Assembly (NCBI GenBank): GCA_003530935.1
Contig: DPEO01000045.1
Location: 6,034-30,033 of the forward strand
DNA length: 24,000 nucleotides
Direction: 5' to 3'
Source: Desulfomicrobiaceae bacterium
GTDB taxonomy: Bacteria > Desulfobacterota > Desulfovibrionia > Desulfovibrionales > Desulfomicrobiaceae
Part shown: positions 7,295-16,549 of the stretch, one piece after another
Numbering within the stretch: position 1 is the stretch's first letter
How the letters are laid out: each line of letters begins with the position of its first letter
Translations under genes and position numbers: made by a program
The notes under the pieces: generated by a model
What the model saw: only the letters and a program-made list of their open reading frames with translations
Told to the model about the DNA's origin: nothing
The model's database searches: none

Positions 7295-7384
7295 CCTTCC
7301 TTCCCCTCGGATTCACAAAAGACTTGTTTTTTCCGCCGGGTTGCGGCAACAGTGCGGGCATTCCGTACGCATCAGGAGGCGCCT

Positions 7385-9702
7385 ATGTTTCGAAAGTTCT
7401 CCTTTCAGATCAAACTCCAAAGCGTCGTAGGCGTGCTCATGCTGGCCGCCGTAGTCGTATCGTCCTCCATTATCTTCGTACATGTGCGCGACGGGGCCGT
7501 GCGCCTCGGCAAGGCCATGTCGCAAAACATGGTAGACCAACTCGCAGGCGCCATCCGCCTCTATACCGAAAGCACCCGCGTCCGCCTCAAGGCCACTTCC
7601 GATGCAGCCCAGCTCCTGATTGAACCCAGCGAAGTTGGTCCGGGCTACGATTCCGCTTTTCTCGTGGCAGACCGCATCCGTCTCCAATACGATACGCTCG
7701 CCAGTATCTACGCCCGCACCCCATCAGGATTTGTTCTGGTCTCCACCAATCGTGAAGTGCAGGGGAAACGACCTGTGGGGGAAGCCCTTGCCAATGCCCA
7801 CGCCGCCAAATCCCTTGCCGATGGGCGCCCAGTGGAGGGCGAAGAAGTCATCGACGGCATGCTGCGCCTCGTGGAATACCGCCCCATCTTCTGGGAAGGC
7901 CGAGTGGTGGGGGCGCTTCTGACCGCCAAGCGGGTCCTCACCCCAGAACTCGTCCACCTCCTCGAACAAACGAGCATCCAGGGAAAAGGGTATGCTTTGA
8001 TTATCGATGCCCAAGGCATCCTCGTGCACCATCCCCGCAAGGAGCTTGTGGGCCGCCCTGCGGCAGAATCCATCCCAGCGGCCCCCCAACTCCTTGCTGC
8101 GCAAGACGGCATCGTGGAATATAGCTGGGATGGGGAAACGAAGATCGCGGGCAAACGCTCCGTGCCCGCCATTGGTTGGAATATTTTCTTCACCATGACT
8201 GCGGCCGAGACCTTGCACGGACTCGATCATGAGATCCTGAGGTCTGCAGGCATGGGTATGGCGGCAGCCGCCCTCCTCGCCTTTGGCACCCTGCTTGTCC
8301 TCGTCCCCCTGCTCCTTGCCCCTATCCGGCGCATGGCGGCGGCGGCCAAAGATATCGCCAGCGGCCACTATGACGTGCACATCGATTACAGCGCCCGGGA
8401 CGCCATCGGCGCCACTGCCGAGGCCATCCACCATATGGCGGCCACTATCAAGGAGCGCATGGGCTTTACCCAAGGAGTGATCGAGTCCATCAAAATACCG
8501 AACGTCATCTGTGGTCCCGATGCCACGGTCGTACGCTGCAACCAAGCCATGCTCGACGTTTTAGAAATCCCAGGCGCCCCTGAAGACTGGGAGGGCAAAG
8601 ACGTCAATCGCCTCATCTTCGGCGATGCGCCCGGAGAGAGCGTTGCCGCGCAGGTGGCCAGGGATCGCCAGGCGCGCTTGGGTGTAGAGCGGACGTTTAC
8701 CACTCGCACCGGGAAAACCATCCACGTGCGCATCGACTGCACTCCCCTGTTCGATCTCGACGGCAATTTTTTGGGCTCCTCCTCCATCTGGATGGACCTC
8801 ACGGACATCGTTCGGGCCAAGGAAGCCATCGAGGCGAGCCAAAAGCGGCTGCTGGCCGTGGCAGGACAAGTGGATTCCCTGACCCAGCACATATCGCCAC
8901 CGCCACCGACGAGCTGGCCGCCCAGGTGGAACAAGTCTCACGCGGAACCGATGTGCAGCGCGACCGTACCGCGGCGACAGCCACAGCCATGGAAGAGATG
9001 AACGCCACGGTGCTCGAAGTGGCCAAACACGCAGCCGAAGCCGTGCGCGGCTCGCAAGAGGTGCAGGAGAAAAGCCACGAGGGCAACCAGGCCGTGGAAC
9101 GGGTTATCGAGGCCATGGCGGCAGTCCGCGAAAGAGCATCGGTCCTCGCCCAAGAGATCAACGCCCTCGGCTCCAAGGCTGCGGACATCCGCTCCATTGT
9201 GGACGTCATCGCCGACATCGCCGATCAAACCAATTTGCTTGCCCTCAACGCCGCCATCGAGGCGGCCCGGGCCGGAGACGCGGGCCGAGGCTTTGCCGTG
9301 GTGGCCGACGAAGTCCGCAAGCTCGCCGAGCGCACTATGGCGGCCACCGGTCAGGTCACCCAATCCATCGAGGCCATCACCAGCGGAGTTGGCCACACCG
9401 TCCACAGCATGGCCCAGGTGTCCCAGGCGGTCGATACCGCCAACCAGCTCGCAGCACAGGCGGGAGAAACCCTCATGGCCATTGCCCGCATCGCCGAATT
9501 GGCCATGAGCCAAATCACCTCCATCGCCACGGCTGCCGAAGAACAGTCCGCCACCTCGGAAGAGGTCAACCGCTCGGTGGCGGAGATTTCCACCATCGCC
9601 AGTGAAGCAGCCCAGGCCATGACCCAATCCGCGCAGGCCGTGAGCGACCTTGCGCAGCAGGTGGGGGCATTGCGCGAGCTCGTGGCATCCCTCAAGGCAT
9701 AA
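7385..9702 (+). pseudogene. Methyl-accepting chemotaxis protein (Cache sensor, TM, HAMP, PAS, MCP signalling domain) interrupted by a frameshift near 8891-8897
   Basis: There are two ORF fragments: 7352..9001 (true start ATG 7385 after AGGAGG) and 8926..9702 in a different frame. Fragment 1 has an N-terminal TM helix, a periplasmic Cache-like region, a second TM helix, a HAMP domain (PIRRMAAAAKDIASGHYDV...) and a PAS domain. It then decays into [14 protein letters not shown]. The other frame reads [46 protein letters not shown]... from 8893 on, and continues through the canonical [32 protein letters not shown] hairpin tip to stop 9702. Confidence 0.85.
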
Positions 9703-9729
9703 CCTCAACCCGTGTTCCAAGGAGTTGTC

Positions 9730-10008
9730 ATGAACAAGAGCGATCTCATCCAAGCCCTGGCGGAGCGCGTGGGCATTACCCACGACGAGGCCACCATGAC
9801 CGTGGAGACCTTTTTCGAGGCCGTCCGCGACGCCATGCTCCGCGGTGACCGTGTGGAACTCCGGGGATTTGGCAGCTTCAAGATCAAACACTACGACGGA
9901 TACACGGGCCGCAACCCCAAAACCGGCGAACCCGTGGAAGTACGCCCCAAACGCCTGCCCTTCTTCAAGGCGGGCAAAGGGCTGGTGGACGCGGTGAACG
10001 ACCGATGA
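9730..10008 (+). CDS. HU/IHF-family DNA-binding protein (IHF-like)
   Basis: ORF 9712..10008 trimmed to ATG 9730 after AAGGAG. MNKSDLIQALAERVGI...GDRVELRGFGSFKIKHY..YTGRNPKTGEPVEV..KRLPFFKAGKGL is the HU/IHF fold signature (RGFGSF, GRNPKTGE, proline-containing arm). Confidence 0.9.
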   Translation: MNKSDLIQALAERVGITHDEATMTVETFFEAVRDAMLRGDRVELRGFGSFKIKHYDGYTGRNPKTGEPVEVRPKRLPFFKAGKGLVDAVNDR

Positions 10009-10889
10009 TGCCTCCGGTCCCCACAGCAGTGCGTCGGGTGGCCGCCATCCATGACCTCTCCGGGTTTGGCGGCGGCTCTTTGGCAGCCGCCATTCCTATT
10101 TTATCGTCCATGGGATTCCAGGTTTGTGCCCTCCCCACGGCCCTGCTCTCCACCCATACCGGGGGGTTCACCGGCTTTCATTTTCGGGACCTCACCGATG
10201 ACATGGCAGCCATCCTCGCCCATTGGCAGGAGTTGAAGCTCCGCTTTGCCGCCATCTACTCAGGATTTCTCGGATCCCCGGAACAAATCCGCATCGTCCA
10301 GGAAGCCTGCGCCACGGTGGGCAAAGACGCCCTCATCGTGGTGGATCCTGTGCTCGGAGACAACGGCGCCCTCTATCCTACCATGGACGATGCCATGGTT
10401 GCCGGCATGCGCAAGCTCGCTGCCCATGCCCATGTGATTACTCCCAACGTCACCGAGGCCGCACTGCTCCTTGGCGAACCCCTGGACATGGTTTCCGCCC
10501 TCCCCACACAGGTCATCAAGGACTGGGCAAGGCGCCTGGCGGCCACAGGTCCGTGCTGGGTGGTACTCACCGGACTTCCCGCCGCGGCCCCGGATCGCAC
10601 CCAAACCGTGGCCTACGACCGCCGCACGGACAAATTCTGGCGCGTGGAATGTGACTACGTGCCCGCAAGCTACCCAGGCACCGGAGACATGTTCGCCAGC
10701 GTGCTCACCGGCGCCCTGCTCCAGGGCGATTCACTCCCCATTGCCCTGGACCGGGCAGTGCACTTCGTGGCCCTGGCCATTCGCGCCACTTTCGGGCATG
10801 GTGCCCCGGAGCGCGAAGGGGTGCTCCTTGAGCGCGTGCTCCCGAGCCTCGCCGCTCCGGTAAGCTTGAGCAGCTATCAGCTCCTCTAA
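10005..10889 (+). CDS. pdxK: Pyridoxal/pyridoxamine kinase (ribokinase superfamily, PdxK/PdxY type)
   Basis: The start overlaps the upstream stop (ATGATG at 10005). VAAIHDLSGFGGGSLAAAIPILSSMGFQVCALPTALLSTHTGGF...IYSGFLGS...VVDPVLGDNGALY...ITPNVTEAALLLG...YPGTGDMFASVLTGALLQG matches the pyridoxal kinase family pattern. Confidence 0.8.
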   Translation: MMPPVPTAVRRVAAIHDLSGFGGGSLAAAIPILSSMGFQVCALPTALLSTHTGGFTGFHFRDLTDDMAAILAHWQELKLRFAAIYSGFLGSPEQIRIVQEACATVGKDALIVVDPVLGDNGALYPTMDDAMVAGMRKLAAHAHVITPNVTEAALLLGEPLDMVSALPTQVIKDWARRLAATGPCWVVLTGLPAAAPDRTQTVAYDRRTDKFWRVECDYVPASYPGTGDMFASVLTGALLQGDSLPIALDRAVHFVALAIRATFGHGAPEREGVLLERVLPSLAAPVSLSSYQLL

Positions 10890-10982
10890 GCCCCATCCAC
10901 TGCCCGCTTGGCATCGCCCAAAAACAGCGATACGCACCGCACTTGCTGCCGGAACGCCACACGAACCTTAAGAACAACCATC

Positions 10983-11765
10983 ATGCGGAATCTCCTCTCC
11001 CGCCTCGGCGCGGGAACCATATCTCTCGTGGAGCATCTGGGCCGCTACGCGCTTTTTTGCCTCCACGCCCTCCTGCAACCGTTGCGGCCACGGCGGCTGT
11101 GGGGAAAGACCATCGCCCAAATAGCGTTCATCGGCGCGGGATCCTTGGGGATCGTCGCCCTGGTGGCGCTTTTTACCGGCATGGTCCTTGGACTCCAAGG
11201 CTACTACACCCTCATCAAATTCAGCGCTGAAGGGGCCCTGGGCACGGTGGTGGCGCTGTCTTTGGTACGGGAACTCGGGCCGGTGCTCACCGCCATCATG
11301 GTGGTGGCGCGGGCAGGCTCCAGTACCGCTGCGGAGCTGGGCATCATGCGTATTTCAGAACAGATCGACGCCCTGGAGACCATGGATATCGATCCCGTGC
11401 GTCATTTGGTCACCCCCCGCCTGGTGGCGGCCCTCGTCGCCTTTCCCCTGCTCACCGCGGTCTTCGACGTGGTGGGCATCTTCGGCGGCTACCTGGCGGC
11501 GCACCTGCTTTCCTCCCGGGCAGGCATCTACTTCAGCAAGATCCAATCCACTTTGGTGCTCTCCGACATCTCCGGCGGATTCATCAAGGCGGTGGTCTTT
11601 GGCTTTCTGGTCATGAGCGTCTGCTGCTATTGCGGTTTTCATACCCATCTGCGCCGGGACAGCGCCGGGGCCCGGGGAGTGAGCGCATCCACCACCTCGG
11701 CGGTGGTGCAGTCGTGCGTGTACGTGCTTATGGCGGACTACGCCATCACCTCTTTCCTCATGTAG
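10983..11765 (+). CDS. mlaE: MlaE-type ABC transporter permease (phospholipid/retrograde lipid transport)
   Basis: ORF 10908..11765 trimmed to ATG 10983. ...GAGSLGIVALVALFTGMVLGLQGYYTLIKFSAEGALGTVVALSLVRELGPVLTAIMVVARAGSSTAAELGIMRISEQIDALETMDIDPVRHLVTPR is the conserved MlaE/Ttg2B core. The gene heads an mlaFDCA string. Confidence 0.9.
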   Translation: MRNLLSRLGAGTISLVEHLGRYALFCLHALLQPLRPRRLWGKTIAQIAFIGAGSLGIVALVALFTGMVLGLQGYYTLIKFSAEGALGTVVALSLVRELGPVLTAIMVVARAGSSTAAELGIMRISEQIDALETMDIDPVRHLVTPRLVAALVAFPLLTAVFDVVGIFGGYLAAHLLSSRAGIYFSKIQSTLVLSDISGGFIKAVVFGFLVMSVCCYCGFHTHLRRDSAGARGVSASTTSAVVQSCVYVLMADYAITSFLM

Positions 11766-11773
11766 TGTGCGCC

Positions 11774-12961
11774 ATGGCAGAGCCTCTCATCCGCTTCGAA
11801 AACGTTCGCAAGGCCTTTGGCGAAAAAGTCGTCCTGGATGGCGTGAGCCTCGACATCCCGCAAAACGCCATCACCGCCATCATCGGCAAAAGCGGCACCG
11901 GCAAGAGCGTGCTCGTCAAACACGCCATCGGCCTCCTCAAACCGGACGCCGGGGAAATCTTCTTTCAGGGGCAACCCTACAGCCGCATGTCCCGCGCCCA
12001 ATTGGGGGAGGTCAAGCGACGGCTGAGCTACATGTTCCAAAACAACGCGCTGTTCGACTCCCTCTCCGTATTCGAAAACATCGAGCTGCCCCTGCGCGAG
12101 CGCGGCGAAGGCACTCCCAAGGAACGCGCCGCCCGCGTGCTCGAGGTGTGCGAGCAACTGGACATCGCTTCTGCCATAGACCAATACCCCAAGGCCCTGT
12201 CCGGAGGCATGCAAAAACGTGTAGCCCTGGCCCGGGCCCTGGTCACCCGGCCCGAAGTCATCTTCTTCGACGAACCCACCACCGGCCTGGACCCGCTGCG
12301 CAAGAACACGGTGCTCACCATGATCGCCCAGTACCATGCCCGCTTGGGCTTTACGGCGGTCATCATCACCCACGACGTGCCGGACATCTTTTTCGTGGCC
12401 CAAGCGGTGCGCATCCTGGATGGCGGCCATGTGATCTTTGCCGGCACGCCCTTGGAGCTCGAGGCCCAGGCGCAGCCGTCCTTGCGCCCCTACTTGGACG
12501 GCCAAGGCATCCTCACGGAGGAGCTGACGGGCCTGGGCAACCGCCCCGCTTTCATAGCGCAAACTCAGGAGGTCCAAGAACAGCCGGACATGTGGCTCGT
12601 GACCATACGTCTCCACGGCCTACGGGAAATACGCGATTACCGCGGCCAAGTGGCAGCCTTCAGCTGCCTGCAGGAAGCGGCGCACGCCCTGCAGAAAAGC
12701 CCCTTGGGCAAGCGCGGTGTCTTTCGGGTCGGCCCCGAGAGCCTCGCCTGCCTGACGCATGCGCCCCGCGCCACCGAAGAGGACCTTGTCCGCCAGGTAG
12801 CCTTGATCTTGGGGGCGTGCCCAACAGCCTCCACCCTGGGGACCTTGTCCGGTCGACGCCGGCTAACCTTCGTGGCCGCAGCCGCCCCCCTTCGCGCCGA
12901 CACGCACCCCTTGGTGCAAATCCATAACGCCCTGACCACAGCCCGAGGCATATCGTCATGA
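11774..12961 (+). CDS. mlaF: MlaF-type ABC ATPase fused to a C-terminal degenerate GGDEF-like domain
   Basis: ORF 11630..12961 trimmed to ATG 11774. Walker A GKSGTGKS, the Q-loop, signature LSGGMQKRVALARAL, Walker B VIFFDEPTTGLD and the H-loop ITHD all lie in the first 240 aa or so. Residues from about 246 to 395 (nt 12509-12958) begin EELTGLGNRPAF and align along their length with a GGDEF domain, but carry GPESL in place of GG[DE]EF. Confidence 0.85.
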   Translation: MAEPLIRFENVRKAFGEKVVLDGVSLDIPQNAITAIIGKSGTGKSVLVKHAIGLLKPDAGEIFFQGQPYSRMSRAQLGEVKRRLSYMFQNNALFDSLSVFENIELPLRERGEGTPKERAARVLEVCEQLDIASAIDQYPKALSGGMQKRVALARALVTRPEVIFFDEPTTGLDPLRKNTVLTMIAQYHARLGFTAVIITHDVPDIFFVAQAVRILDGGHVIFAGTPLELEAQAQPSLRPYLDGQGILTEELTGLGNRPAFIAQTQEVQEQPDMWLVTIRLHGLREIRDYRGQVAAFSCLQEAAHALQKSPLGKRGVFRVGPESLACLTHAPRATEEDLVRQVALILGACPTASTLGTLSGRRRLTFVAAAAPLRADTHPLVQIHNALTTARGISS

Positions 12962-13413
12962 AAACATCTACGCTATATACCGTTGTCGGTGTCTTCGTCC
13001 TGCTGGGACTCCTCGCCGCCGGGTACCTCACCCTTACTTTGGGCAACACCACCCTTTTTGCCCGCGGGGTGTACACCATTTCCGCCCATTTCGGCTCCGT
13101 GAGCGGGCTGCGCGTAGGCAGCACCGTGGAGATCTCCGGCGTGCCGGTGGGAAAAGTCGCGGACATCCAACTCGATCAGGAGCAGTTCTACCAAGCCCGC
13201 GTCGTCATGCAGATCCACAACGCCATCCGCATCCCCACGGATTCTTCCGCCGCCATCAAGACCAGCGGGCTCATCGGCGACAAGTATGTGCAGATCATCC
13301 CGGGAGCGGATGAAAAAAATCTTTCGGACGGTGGATCCATCCTGGACACTAAGTCCGCTCTGGACATCGAAGAAATGGTCTCCAAGTATGTATTTGGGAG
13401 CGTAAAACAATGA
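12958..13413 (+). CDS. mlaD: MlaD (MCE-domain) periplasmic lipid-binding component
   Basis: ATGA overlap with mlaF. An N-terminal TM anchor (TVVGVFVLLGLLAAGYL) is followed by FGSVSGLRVGSTVEISGVPVGKVADIQLD...ARVVMQI...IPTDSSAAIKTSGLIGDKYVQI, the MCE domain pattern. Confidence 0.9.
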   Translation: MKTSTLYTVVGVFVLLGLLAAGYLTLTLGNTTLFARGVYTISAHFGSVSGLRVGSTVEISGVPVGKVADIQLDQEQFYQARVVMQIHNAIRIPTDSSAAIKTSGLIGDKYVQIIPGADEKNLSDGGSILDTKSALDIEEMVSKYVFGSVKQ

Positions 13414-14015
13414 GAAACCGCGCCCCTGCTGCGCTCTTCGTACTCGCTGCGTGGCTCATGCCTGCTTGCGTATGGCCTGAAACCTCTCCGCTTGCCTTTG
13501 TGCGGGAAAACGTGGGCCACGTCGTCGCGGTGCTGGAAAATCCCGATCTCCGGGGAGAAGAACGCCGCAGCCAACGCTATGCGGAACTTTCCCGTATTAC
13601 GGATGCTTTTTTCAATGCCACGGAACTGGCGCGTCGCGCCCTCGGACAACGCTGGCGTATGTTCTCAGGAGCTGAACAGCAGGAGTTCACCCAGCTTTTT
13701 CTTGAGCTCATCAAGCAGACCTATCTCGGTAAGCTCGATGCCTACAACAATAATGGCATCACTTACGACCAGGAAATATTCCAATCACCGACCCAAGCAG
13801 AAGTCCTGCTGACCGTCGCCACGGATAAAGGCCCACTTCGAGTGGAAATCGCGCTCATCCGAGATGCAAACGGCTGGCGGGCCTTTGACGTGACCGTGGA
13901 AAACATCAGTCTGGTTCGGAACTTCCGCACCCAATTTCAAAGCATCCTGCAGTCGCATCCCCCCCAATATCTCATCCGTATTCTCAAGGAGAAAGTCCAT
14001 GGCTCGGCTCAGTAA
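13410..14015 (+). CDS. mlaC: MlaC/Ttg2D periplasmic phospholipid-binding protein
   Basis: ATGA overlap with mlaD. It has a signal peptide (ALFVLAAWLMPACVWP). FFNATELARRALGQRWRMFSGAEQQEFTQLFLELIKQTYLGKL is the toluene-tolerance Ttg2D/MlaC pattern. Confidence 0.85.
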   Translation: MRNRAPAALFVLAAWLMPACVWPETSPLAFVRENVGHVVAVLENPDLRGEERRSQRYAELSRITDAFFNATELARRALGQRWRMFSGAEQQEFTQLFLELIKQTYLGKLDAYNNNGITYDQEIFQSPTQAEVLLTVATDKGPLRVEIALIRDANGWRAFDVTVENISLVRNFRTQFQSILQSHPPQYLIRILKEKVHGSAQ

Positions 14016-14712
14016 GCTCATCGTGATGCTCCTCGTGACCCTGATGCTTGGGGCGTGTGCCCCCAAACACGCCCCTGCCCCGGACAGTGCGCTCCAAGAA
14101 GAGCAGCCCATCCCGGATCCTCTGGAACCTTTCAACCGGGCCATGTTCCGCTTCAACGATTGGTTCATCACCGACGTCTTCGGCCCGGTGCGCACGGTGT
14201 ACGTGGGTGTCTTCCCGCAAGACGTCCGCAACGGCTTCGGTAACTTCTACCGCAACCTCGCGACGCCGGTGCGCGTGGCCAACGATATCCTCCAGCTCAA
14301 GGTGGACAAGGCCGTTGCCGAAGTGGTGCGCGTTGTCCTCAACACCACCTTTGGTACCCTGGGGCTCTTCGACGTGACCCGCAACATCGCCTGGCTCAAC
14401 CCCTCCCCGGAAGACTTCGGGCAGACCTTGGGACACGCCGGCGCAGGGTGCGGTGCGTACCTGGTCCTGCCCTTCCTCGGGCCCACGAGTATCCGTGATG
14501 CCATAGGGCAGGTTGCGGACAGCGTCGCCCATCCCTTCTTCTGGGCCCAACCTCTGGCGGACGCCGCCCTACCCATGCGCATCCATGACCGCGCCAATGC
14601 CTTGTCCCAGTACTTCGACGAGTACCAGCAGGCCAAGGCCGACGCCTTTGACCCGTACATCAGCTTCAAAGACATCTACACCCAGCACCGGGATGCTTTG
14701 GTGCGCCAGTAG
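13999..14712 (+). CDS. mlaA: MlaA/VacJ outer-membrane lipoprotein
   Basis: AAGGAGA lies upstream and the gene overlaps mlaC by 17 nt. It has a lipobox LMLGAC. DPLEPFNRAMFRFNDWF...RNGFGNFYRNLATPVRVANDILQ...NTTFGTLGLFDV is the VacJ family signature. Confidence 0.9.
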   Translation: MARLSKLIVMLLVTLMLGACAPKHAPAPDSALQEEQPIPDPLEPFNRAMFRFNDWFITDVFGPVRTVYVGVFPQDVRNGFGNFYRNLATPVRVANDILQLKVDKAVAEVVRVVLNTTFGTLGLFDVTRNIAWLNPSPEDFGQTLGHAGAGCGAYLVLPFLGPTSIRDAIGQVADSVAHPFFWAQPLADAALPMRIHDRANALSQYFDEYQQAKADAFDPYISFKDIYTQHRDALVRQ

Positions 14713-14745: not shown

Positions 14746-15585
14746 TTACCACGGCTGACTCTGCAAATCCAAAGTCACTCGAAAGGAGTGGCGGATTTCT
14801 CGCTGGACCGCGCGGTGGAAACGCACCGCCGGATAGCCGAGCAGCATGACGTACATGACATGGTCTTCGGGGATGCCCAGGCTTCGCGCCACATGGGGCA
14901 CCACCGCCTGGATGGCCCAGGTGGCAAAGCCACACCATAATGTCCCAAGCCCCAAGCTTTGGGCCAAAAGTTCCAACTGGGCGAGGGCGATGTACACATC
15001 CGCCTCGGGTGAAGGCCCACCCTTGGGACTCGAAGCAATGATCATGTGCGGAGCCTTACGAAACACGAGATCCTGGCCCTCGGCAAAACGCCGCGCCAAG
15101 GCAGCAAAAAAGCCCAGGCCCTCCGGCAAGGTGCCGTCTGCTGCAGCCCGGGCGACGCCCTCCATGACCGTATGGCGCAAGCGCTCCATCACCGAGGCAT
15201 CGTCCACCACCGTAAAACGCGTGGCGCGAACGTTTTTCCCAGTGGGCGCATAGGCCAGGGCCTCCACGAGACGCTGAAAAAGCGCCGGCTCCACCGGTTT
15301 TTGGGCAAAACGCCGGCAGGAGCGACGCTGCCGAAGGAGCCGATCCATGGCCTCAGGGGCGGGCATCTCCCCCAAAGGGGCACAGGCATCCGGCTGCACT
15401 CCTGCCATGGAAAACGCCCCTACCGGACACACCGCCAGACAATGCTGACATTGGAGGCACGCCTTCTCCCGGTGGGGCAAAATCCCGGCCACGCCATCGC
15501 GCAGCTCGATGATCCCCACGGGACACTCGGTGACGCACTCTCCACACCCCACACACCGGTCTTCATCTACCTGCCATTGCAGCAT
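14746..15585 (-). CDS. Ferredoxin-domain (2x[4Fe-4S]) / nitroreductase-family fusion protein
   Basis: ORF 14746..15639 trimmed to ATG 15585 after GAGGAG. There are two CxxCxxCxxxCP motifs (CVGCGECVTECP and CLQCQHCLAVCP). The nitroreductase fold follows (LLRQRRSCRRFAQKPV...AYAPTGKNVRATRFTVV...LGLGTLWCGF). ATG 15639 is a less likely alternative start. Confidence 0.85.
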   Translation of the reverse strand: MLQWQVDEDRCVGCGECVTECPVGIIELRDGVAGILPHREKACLQCQHCLAVCPVGAFSMAGVQPDACAPLGEMPAPEAMDRLLRQRRSCRRFAQKPVEPALFQRLVEALAYAPTGKNVRATRFTVVDDASVMERLRHTVMEGVARAAADGTLPEGLGFFAALARRFAEGQDLVFRKAPHMIIASSPKGGPSPEADVYIALAQLELLAQSLGLGTLWCGFATWAIQAVVPHVARSLGIPEDHVMYVMLLGYPAVRFHRAVQREIRHSFRVTLDLQSQPW

Positions 15586-15621
15586 CTGGTTCTCCTCTTC
15601 CCTTGGCAGAACGCCCTGTTT

Positions 15622-15638
15622 TGCATAGCAAAGATGCA
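15622..15638. promoter_or_regulatory. Candidate operator (inverted repeat TGCAT-N7-ATGCA) upstream of znuA
   Basis: TGCATagcaaagATGCA lies in the most AT-rich patch of the 79-bp divergent intergenic region, 27-43 nt upstream of the znuA ATG. The arms are only 5 bp, so it is not statistically compelling on its own. Confidence 0.25.
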
Positions 15639-15664
15639 TCTAACGTTTCGGCCTCGGAGGAATC

Positions 15665-16549
15665 ATGGTTTGGCGATATTTCGCGACGCTTCTCGTATGC
15701 CTCATGCCTCTTTCCGCCAGCGCCGCCCTTTCTGTGGTGGTCCCGGTGGCGCCGCTGGCGGAGATCGTCCAAGCAGTGGGCGGCAGTCACGTGTCCATAA
15801 CGATCCTCGTGCCCCCTGGCGCCTCGCTGCATACCTACGAGCCCAAGCCCATGCAAATGGCCGCCGTGGCCCAGGCTCGGCTCTACTGTAGCGTCGGCGA
15901 CGTCTTCGACGCCGTGTGGGTGCCGCGCTTTCGCAGCGCCAACCCCCAAATAGCTGTGCTCGAACTCTGGTCCGGCATCGAGCGAATCCCCATGACCGCC
16001 CATCACGATGACCACGCAGAAGATCACGACCACCACGACGACGCCCATCCGGGAGGCATGCCCGATCCGCATATCTGGCTCGACCCCATGCTCGTGGCAC
16101 GCATGAGCGAAAAAGTTCGCGACGCCCTCTCGACCCTGGACCCGGAGCATGCCGGGGAGTTCCGTCACAACCAGCACGCATACCAGCAGCGCCTCATCCA
16201 GGTGGACGCGTCCATTCGTACACTCCTCGCCCCCATCCCGGAAGACCGCCGCGCCTTTCTGGTGTTCCATCCCGCATGGGGGTACTTCGCCCGCGCCTAC
16301 GGGCTGCGACAGATCCCCATCGAGGTCCACGGCAAAGAGCCGAGCCCCCGACAGCTTGCGGCCACGGTGCGCACGGCTCGCGCCACGGGCGCCCAAGTGA
16401 TTTTCGTCCAGCCGCAGATTTCCACCAAGGCTGCTCAAAGTGTGGCCCGGGAAATTGGGGCCACCATCGCCACTCTCGACCCCCTCGCCCCGGACCTCTC
16501 CGCCAATCTCGAGCGCGCCGCCCGCGCCATCGCCGAGGCCTTGCACTGA
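15665..16549 (+). CDS. znuA: ZnuA-type periplasmic zinc-binding protein (cluster 9 / TroA-like SBP)
   Basis: GGAGGA lies upstream and the protein has a signal peptide. The motifs SLHTYEPKP, DPHIWLDP and FHPAWGYFARAYGL are present. An acidic His-rich loop, HHDDHAEDHDHHDDAH (nt 16001-16048), is typical of zinc-specific ZnuA. Confidence 0.8.
   Translation: MVWRYFATLLVCLMPLSASAALSVVVPVAPLAEIVQAVGGSHVSITILVPPGASLHTYEPKPMQMAAVAQARLYCSVGDVFDAVWVPRFRSANPQIAVLELWSGIERIPMTAHHDDHAEDHDHHDDAHPGGMPDPHIWLDPMLVARMSEKVRDALSTLDPEHAGEFRHNQHAYQQRLIQVDASIRTLLAPIPEDRRAFLVFHPAWGYFARAYGLRQIPIEVHGKEPSPRQLAATVRTARATGAQVIFVQPQISTKAAQSVAREIGATIATLDPLAPDLSANLERAARAIAEALH

Follow-up and report, generated by a model that had tools for sequence, protein, structure and literature searches.

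A degenerate GGDEF-fold domain fused to the C-terminus of MlaF, an undescribed and widespread architecture in bacterial lipid-transport operons

The subject of this analysis is the mlaF gene in a stretch of 24 000 nucleotides from a Desulfomicrobiaceae bacterium (GenBank assembly GCA_003530935.1, contig DPEO01000045.1, positions 6,034 to 30,033 of the forward strand), which is referred to as the window throughout. The gene is a single uninterrupted open reading frame (ORF) on the forward strand (11774–12961; start ATG at 11774, stop TGA at 12959–12961), and its product of 395 amino acids joins an ABC ATPase to a C-terminal tail with the fold, but not the catalytic residues, of a diguanylate cyclase (GGDEF) domain. 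The neighbouring genes are mlaE, mlaD, mlaC and mlaA, each with a strong Pfam match, and the fused gene therefore encodes the genuine MlaF ATPase of an mlaE-F-D-C-A operon. The MlaF-GGDEF protein is a member of an undescribed and widespread family rather than a one-off; it is not a new type of system, since its two parts are familiar and the principle of a folded regulatory tail on an ABC ATPase is established. By analogy with other ABC ATPases, the tail may serve as a non-catalytic dimerization or regulatory domain that stabilizes or gates the pair of MlaF subunits on MlaE, a reading to which we assign a probability of roughly 0.5.

About 160 amino acids follow the ATPase in the same ORF, and residues 249–395 (12518–12958, forward strand) are assigned to the degenerate GGDEF-fold domain. 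The assignment draws on Pfam, on the comparison of a family profile with the Protein Data Bank (PDB), on an AlphaFold2 (AF2) model searched with Foldseek and on the ratio of nonsynonymous to synonymous substitution rates (dN/dS, 0.23–0.29). At the level of the single sequence the evidence is borderline. The Pfam model PF00990 (gathering score 23.8) gives 23.7 bits for the whole protein and 26.4 bits (E = 6.9e-6) for the tail alone, with a match that spans only profile positions 5–95 of 161, and the tail has only weak cyclase matches in NCBIfam. A word-indexed homologue search with the tail alone returned nothing and a full-length query was required; this returned about 100 proteins of 370–416 amino acids with the same architecture. 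It is the comparison at the level of this family that is decisive. In an alignment of 41 non-redundant homologous tails (A1), 36 tails individually match PF00990 (best E = 7e-19); Pfam detects the tail in only part of the family. The best match of the A1 profile in the PDB is SadC (4wxw; E = 1.8e-21), with profile positions 13–158 covered, and the profile also matches DgcR, DosC, DgcB, WspR, PleD, DgcZ, FimX and LapD. When the A1 profile was searched with HMMER against 1.84 billion representative proteins, 334,472 matches were obtained, and GG[DE]EF is present in 130 of the 148 newly returned proteins among the best 150.

The predicted structure agrees with the profiles. The AF2 model of the window tail, built on A1, is confident (predicted local distance difference test score, pLDDT, 87.5; predicted TM-score, pTM, 0.82) and has the β-α-α-β-β-α-β core with the motif hairpin that defines the GGDEF fold. 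All of the top 50 matches of the tail model in a Foldseek search of the PDB are GGDEF domains (probability 1.00, TM-score 0.52–0.68 normalized to the query). From the profiles and the model taken together, the tail is a GGDEF-fold domain. The initial annotation of this DNA had placed a GGDEF-like domain after the ATPase, a proposal that it was prepared to give up if neither profile nor structural similarity were significant. Both similarities are significant, as seen in the match of the A1 profile to the PDB, in the 36 tails detected by PF00990 and in the AF2 and Foldseek results.

To assess what is left of the active site, residues were equated through an alignment with 40 canonical GGDEF domains and counted in 136 unique fused homologues. 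In PleD, the metal ligands are D327 and E370, the guanine-binding residues N335 and D344, and the phosphate-binding residues K442 and R446 (PMC7288161). In the window, the DxDxFK block is replaced by R279-L-H-G-L-R284 (12608–12625, forward strand), which puts an Arg at the position of the metal-binding Asp D327; none of the 136 family members has Asp there. In the segment at 12632–12661 (forward strand), R287 stands for N335 (Asn is kept in 10 of the 136), G291 is an invariant Gly and F296 (12659–12661) stands for D344. No member has Asp at the D344 position, where His (68 members) or Gln (52) is found in 120 of 136 and Phe, the residue of the small clade to which the window belongs, in seven. 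The signature motif GG[DE]EF is replaced by G320-P-E-S-L324 (12731–12745, forward strand), located at the β2–β3 hairpin (AF2 strands 316–320 and 323–329), and neither the motif nor its second Gly occurs in any of the 136 proteins. The equivalent of PleD E370 is E322, K442 aligns with R391 and R446 lies opposite a gap; about half of the family, the window included, either has a gap at the C-terminal K...GRN block or lacks it. Arg is dominant at the D327 and R366 positions. An RxxD I-site motif was found nowhere in the window tail, the I-site position of which reads L311-G-K-R314, and in the family the I-site columns hold Arg in only 11 and Asp in only 16 of 136 proteins.

Judged from these residues, catalysis has been lost family-wide and the tail is neither a synthase of cyclic dimeric guanosine monophosphate (c-di-GMP) nor a canonical I-site c-di-GMP receptor. 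The reading as a canonical receptor was rejected because RxxD is lacking. The initial annotation had likewise described the catalytic positions as replaced and the I-site as missing, and the substitutions in the window (R279, R287, F296 and GPESL) and in the 136 homologues agree with it. The peptide that it quoted is correct and GPESL lies exactly at nucleotides 12731–12745 (G320–L324), where it was reported. Two details needed correction: the tail was said to start at 12509, although the EELTGL stretch begins at 12518 (E249), and the replacement for DxDxFK, while rightly recognized, was given as TIRLHG, two residues off the register of the alignment. Its conclusion is unchanged by either correction.

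The part of the tail that the family keeps lies elsewhere. The entry motif E249-E-L-T-G-L-G-N-R257 (12518–12544, forward strand), which corresponds to DxLTGLxNR, is the best-kept part of the tail. In the canonical domains D, L, T, L, N and R of this motif are each present in 40 of 40 and G in 29 of 40; in the family D/E, L, T, G, L and R are each present in 33–40 of 41 members. Also kept are the linker from the ATPase, L283, D/E288, the invariant G291 and, often, an Arg before the motif. The conservation pattern indicates that what is preserved is the hinge and the structural core, not the substrate pocket. DxLTGLxNR and the core Gly are shared with the homologous domains of the active diguanylate cyclases PleD, WspR, SadC and DgcZ, but the catalytic and substrate-binding residues of these enzymes are replaced in the tail and the K...GRN block is missing in the window, which places the tail outside the enzyme class. 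In keeping the fold while losing GG[DE]EF the tail resembles the degenerate GGDEF domains of PelD, PopA, FimX, LapD, GdpP and BcsE, and the domains of FimX and LapD are among its structural matches. Those proteins keep an RxxD I-site, are paired with a c-di-GMP-binding EAL domain or retain nucleotide binding. The MlaF tails, by contrast, are without the I-site, without the GTP contacts and fused to an ABC ATPase.

Two readings to which we attach next to no probability are that the tail is an active enzyme which still makes c-di-GMP and that the fusion is an artefact of a lost stop codon or of assembly. One homologue is indeed named 'Diguanylate cyclase' in UniRef, but this name comes from automatic annotation only, and the reading as an active cyclase was rejected on the motifs, with GG[DE]EF, D327, N335 and D344 all replaced. 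An artefact is at odds with the occurrence of the identical 395-residue protein on no fewer than 24 independent contigs (JGI, NCBI and Logan assemblies), in each case between mlaE and mlaD. A relative with 89% identity (P0002) also has 395 amino acids, and relatives with 87, 72 and 63% identity (P0003, P0004 and P0005) are fused in the same operon on their contigs. Separate genes for the ATPase and the tail were found in none of the close or distant relatives examined. The initial annotation had itself pointed to a lost stop codon, with separate genes in close relatives, as the way in which its proposal might fail; the relatives proved to be fused. The contigs, the fused relatives, the 38 species genomes described below and the dN/dS values together led us to reject a read-through or assembly artefact.

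Against three of these relatives, Nei–Gojobori dN/dS is 0.23–0.29 for the tail and 0.08–0.15 for the ABC part. From these values, the tail is under purifying selection, looser than that on the ABC part. This bears on a further reading, in which the tail is an evolutionary relic, the decaying remnant of a once active cyclase fusion with no function beyond not harming MlaF. The two- to threefold faster evolution of the tail relative to the ABC part and the high variability of the catalytic positions are what such decay would look like; the window protein is among the most degenerate members, with a Pfam match only at threshold, and the nesting of unfused MlaF proteins among fused ones in a crude tree suggests repeated loss. 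However, a dN/dS of 0.23–0.29 is well below 1, length, secondary structure and linker have been preserved in different orders and phyla, a confident AF2 model was obtained and the 38 species genomes yielded no frameshifted or truncated copy other than one interrupted by the end of its contig. We regard a mere relic as very unlikely.

The fused architecture is not restricted to the window and its closest relatives. Fused MlaF proteins in the same operon were found in Desulfonatronum lacustre, on a Desulfomicrobium-type metagenome contig and in Desulfoplanes formicivorans. In a scan of one genome per species, limited to 600 matches and 80 loci, for which the 80 nearest loci are a sample and not a census and do not include the Desulfomicrobium or Desulfonatronum genomes known from the full-length homologue search, the tail is present in 38 of the 80 species genomes, in fused proteins of 401–419 amino acids, and one further copy is cut by the end of its contig. 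The 38 genomes are labelled Desulfovibrionaceae, Desulfovibrio, Desulfohalobiaceae, Desulfobacterales, Desulfobacteraceae, Syntrophaceae and Smithella, and beyond these Lentisphaeria, Nitrospira and one metagenome-assembled genome (MAG) of the Hyphomicrobiales. A same-strand mlaE accompanies all 38 fused loci and mlaD 37 of them, mostly followed by mlaC and mlaA. The other 42 loci mostly encode an ordinary MlaF of 245–260 amino acids. When the ABC parts are placed in a crude neighbour-joining tree, the fused proteins make up one broad cluster, with some unfused proteins from Desulfobacterales and Opitutales nested inside, a topology that tentatively points to one old gain of the GGDEF domain followed by losses.

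Two of the 42 loci carry other C-terminal extensions, which have a bare match or none to the family profile: L061, from an Opitutales MAG (376 amino acids), and L078, from a Thermodesulfobacteriota MAG (383 amino acids). The extension of L078 still shows a GGDEF-like 'ARFDERCIAFILPGT' stretch. That of L061 is rich in Ala and Arg and could be either a tail in decay or one of another kind.

The ATPase to which the tail is attached has all of the expected features. Residues 1–235 (11774–12478, forward strand) form the ABC ATPase domain, of which residues 21–170 match Pfam ABC_tran (PF00005; E = 4e-33). The Walker A motif (GKSGTGKS), Q-loop, signature motif (LSGGMQKR), Walker B motif (IFFDE) and H-loop (His200) are present, and G38–S45, Q89, S143–R149, D166/E167 and H200 do not vary among 51 homologues. 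Of the NCBIfam models, MlaF (NF008809; E = 3e-55) matches best, with a score of 187.4 bits that does not reach the equivalog cut-off of 441; on this score the ATPase is classed as a distant MlaF-type protein, not as an equivalog by NCBI's rule. The full-length AF2 model, calculated as a monomer, has a pLDDT of 90 and a pTM of 0.83, and its top match in Foldseek is Escherichia coli MlaF (6xgy; 37% identity, TM-score 0.82 normalized to the target). The best matches as a group are the MlaF proteins of E. coli, Acinetobacter baumannii and Pseudomonas aeruginosa and the mycobacterial MceG. Between the ATPase and the tail lies a helical linker of about 13 residues (236–248; 12479–12517, forward strand), defined by conservation and by the AF2 helices 235–241 and 243–252, with the family consensus xLxxYxHGxExLx and an invariant L247.

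GGDEF domains are dimer-forming modules, and their entry hinge (DxLT) relays how the helix before it is positioned. The hinge and a short linker are exactly what the family keeps, and a role in dimerization or regulation is therefore favoured. In the mechanism that we propose, a diguanylate cyclase domain would have been fused to the C-terminus of MlaF long ago, and it has lost its catalysis since then. Two MlaF subunits would lie under the MlaE dimer, each with a compact α/β domain on its linker, and the two tails would pair with one another, or pack against the neighbouring ATPase, beneath the dimer of nucleotide-binding domains (NBDs). From there they would keep the ATPase pair together on the transporter and determine how readily the two subunits close on ATP. 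The arrangement would be that of the C-terminal domains of MetN, MalK and ModC, and the job that of the handshake which E. coli MlaF makes together with MlaB. Dimerization, the position under the NBDs and an effect on ATPase activity or complex stability are what we infer for the tail from these comparisons.

Published work on the E. coli transporter gives this proposal its background. The 25-residue C-terminal extension of E. coli MlaF is essential and dimerizes MlaF through a reciprocal handshake, a GCN4 zipper can largely replace it, and in other ABC ATPases the folded C-terminal domains lie side by side below the NBDs (PMC7367683). E. coli MlaF in complex with MlaB (6xgy, 6xbd; PMC7367683) belongs to the same ATPase family as the window protein (37% identity, TM-score 0.82–0.85 normalized to the target), comes from the same kind of operon, with MlaE, MlaD, MlaC and MlaA as partners, and likewise has an additional part after the NBD core from about residue 240. 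The additional parts themselves differ: in E. coli an extended peptide of about 25 residues wraps around the neighbouring subunit and MlaB, whereas in the window a GGDEF-like domain of about 147 residues (249–395) is folded. The gene order is E-F-D-C-A in the window and F-E-D-C-B in E. coli, and no mlaB was found in or near the window operon, whereas E. coli has MlaB.

The ABC ATPases closest to the window protein in layout are MetN, with its C2 domain, and MalK, ModC and CysA, with domains of the TOBE type; in each, as in the window, the NBD is followed by a compact folded domain. In these proteins the C-terminal domain dimerizes under the NBDs, gates their closure and modulates the ATPase, often when a ligand binds, and a mechanistic likeness to the window protein would follow the same lines. 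The fold of the tail (GGDEF/palm as opposed to C2 of MetN or the TOBE type) and the transporter (an MCE-type lipid system as opposed to solute importers) are different. The full-length AF2 model is confident throughout, which suggests that the tail has a defined placement with respect to the NBD. In Foldseek, MetN (3tui, 3tuz and 6cvl) aligns with this model over about 360 columns, which cover both the NBD and the C-terminal C2 domain (root-mean-square deviation 7.8–9.6 Å), and the alignment hints at a similar two-domain layout.

Several observations weigh against this role. The deviation in the MetN alignment is high. Many close relatives have an MlaF of 245–260 amino acids with neither tail nor handshake and with no mlaB nearby; since so many short MlaF proteins are without any extension, the tail is dispensable in some relatives, and help with dimerization is evidently dispensable in that lineage. 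Finally, the conserved His/Gln at the D344 position could mean that a new ligand site is under selection and that the role is not purely structural.

A stronger version, in which the tail would replace MlaB, was dropped. Around the loci, ORFs were called by a crude greedy method over about 5 kb on each side. Neither a STAS protein nor mlaB was detected when the operon genes and the small ORFs on the same strand up to 5 kb from 36 fused loci were examined, and the small same-strand ORFs near 40 unfused loci likewise yielded none. STAS proteins are absent near fused and unfused loci alike, with no anticorrelation; the lineages sampled seem generally to be without an operon-encoded MlaB, for which the tail is thus no simple substitute.

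If the tail is more than a structural element, it might be a ligand sensor that binds a small molecule at a remodelled site and switches MlaF on or off. The candidate ligands are c-di-GMP at a non-canonical site, GTP, (p)ppGpp, cGAMP and a lipid-derived metabolite, and the control would resemble trans-inhibition in MetN and ModC or the way in which c-di-AMP controls the OpuC ATPase via CBS domains. The purifying selection on the tail speaks for a sensor, as does the fact that the replacement of D344 is itself conserved (His 68 and Gln 52 of 136) and accompanied by the dominant Arg at the D327 and R366 positions; from its conservation, the His/Gln might be the sign of a new functional site. There are well-known examples of nucleotide binding by degenerate GGDEF domains (PMC7288161), and the GGDEF domain of PleD binds ppGpp in PDB entry 9g85. 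However, all of the side chains that contact GTP are lost, the window has no RxxD and the occurrence of Arg or Asp at the I-site positions is confined to a minority of the family. The residues of the would-be pocket vary between subfamilies, with Phe at the D344 position in the clade of the window (7 of 136), and roughly half of the members, again including the window, have a gap at the phosphate-binding K...GRN block or lack it. On balance we consider a sensor unlikely. Its more specific form, in which the tail would be a second-messenger or metabolite sensor and a nucleotide signal at a remodelled pocket other than the I-site would switch retrograde phospholipid transport post-translationally, is distinctly unlikely. 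The same low standing applies to the proposal that such a pocket, to which the conserved His/Gln in place of D344 and the Arg in place of D327 would belong, would be present in much of the Desulfobacterota and in some Lentisphaeria and Nitrospira.

The initial annotation had also raised the idea of docking, which is compatible with all of the data. Here the dead GGDEF domain would recruit another protein to the transporter, either as a heterodimer with an active GGDEF protein, for local signalling or sequestration of the cyclase, or by binding a factor involved in envelope stress or lipid metabolism. GGDEF domains function as dimers, and the family keeps the hinge and core while the catalytic half-site is free to vary, both of which a docking surface would accommodate. 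The neighbourhood offers no partner, however: the flanks of the operon differ between Desulfonatronum, Desulfomicrobium, Desulfoplanes and the window, with no conserved partner gene, and MlaD is the sole family common to the small neighbouring ORFs. A docking platform is accordingly a doubtful alternative, and a dimerization or regulatory domain remains the reading that we prefer.

The tail is not the only addition found at the C-terminus of MlaF-like ATPases. Three close relatives of MlaF, tandem double-cassette proteins of 504–566 amino acids (P0006, P0016 and P0075), contain two complete ABC cassettes in one chain, and two of them (P0006 and P0016) are 42–43% identical to the window MlaF over the ABC part only. 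What has been added C-terminally in these proteins is a second ABC cassette, giving a covalent NBD dimer, and not a GGDEF fold. They would represent another natural way to keep two NBDs together.

The remaining genes of the operon lie on the forward strand on both sides of mlaF. The permease gene mlaE (10908–11765; Pfam MlaE, E = 7.4e-75) ends with a TAG stop at 11763–11765, 8 nt before the ATG of mlaF; its true start is probably downstream of 10908, because the homologues on four near-identical contigs (L001–L004) are called at 260 amino acids. Downstream of mlaF follow mlaD, for an MCE domain protein (12958–13413; Pfam MlaD, E = 1e-22), mlaC, for the periplasmic lipid carrier (13410–14015; Pfam MlaC, E = 9.3e-36), and mlaA (vacJ), for the outer-membrane lipoprotein (13999–14712; Pfam MlaA, E = 9.5e-62). 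The mlaF stop TGA overlaps the mlaD start ATG by 4 nt in an ATGA sequence (12958–12961, forward strand), mlaD overlaps mlaC by 4 nt (13410–13413) and mlaC overlaps mlaA by 17 nt (13999–14015). These overlaps, with ATGA being typical of such coupling, suggest translational coupling along the operon. MAG contigs share 99.2–99.6% identity with the window, and P0001, a protein identical to that of the window, bears the source name Desulfomicrobiaceae.

Directly upstream of mlaE are genes for an HU-family DNA-binding protein and a pyridoxal/HMP kinase-family protein (9712–10889). The same pair is found at this position at L006 (P0037), L088 (P0004, 72% identity) and L090 (P0005, 63% identity), and not in Desulfonatronum or Desulfoplanes. 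Downstream of the operon are a gene for a ferredoxin–nitroreductase fusion (14746–15639, reverse strand) and znuA (15665–16549, forward strand), an arrangement kept in the closest relatives (L001–L004, L088 and L089). On the near-identical contigs znuA is followed by genes for the ATPase and permease of a zinc-uptake-type (ZnuABC-like) ABC transporter. Further upstream, a gene for a methyl-accepting chemotaxis protein with Cache, HAMP and PAS domains (7352–9702, forward strand) is split into two overlapping ORFs (7352–9001 and 8926–9702) by an insertion of two nucleotides, 'AT', at 8891–8892 relative to the near-identical contigs L001 and L003; the gap counts for L002 and L004 are consistent with the same insertion in the window. 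The gene is intact in L001–L004, as an ORF of 771 amino acids, and the split would reflect either pseudogenization in this strain or an error in sequencing.

No description of an MlaF–GGDEF fusion was found in the literature searched, which covered the topics of Mla, GGDEF, c-di-GMP and Desulfobacterota outside subscription-only papers. The statement of the initial annotation that no such MlaF had been described thus holds for this literature, whereas in sequence databases the architecture is common and automatically annotated. None of the curated NCBIfam models covers the fused protein. Members are at risk of being labelled as diguanylate cyclases, as has already happened to the UniRef entry mentioned above, which would inflate censuses of c-di-GMP enzymes in sulfate reducers. 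For the c-di-GMP field, the tails constitute a new and widespread class of non-catalytic GGDEF domains with neither an I-site nor an EAL partner. Specialists in either Mla or c-di-GMP may be somewhat surprised by the fusion.

Were the tail to prove a nucleotide sensor, it would connect GGDEF-type signalling directly with envelope lipid homeostasis for the first time and would present a new ligand-binding mode for the GGDEF fold. In E. coli, the post-translational control of the Mla transporter involves a unique handshake together with the STAS protein MlaB. At this same site of MlaF, the GGDEF tail may be regarded as the third solution found in nature, beside the handshake peptide and the tandem double cassette, and it offers a tractable test case for how the pairing of NBDs is enforced or gated in MCE-type lipid transporters that are without MlaB.

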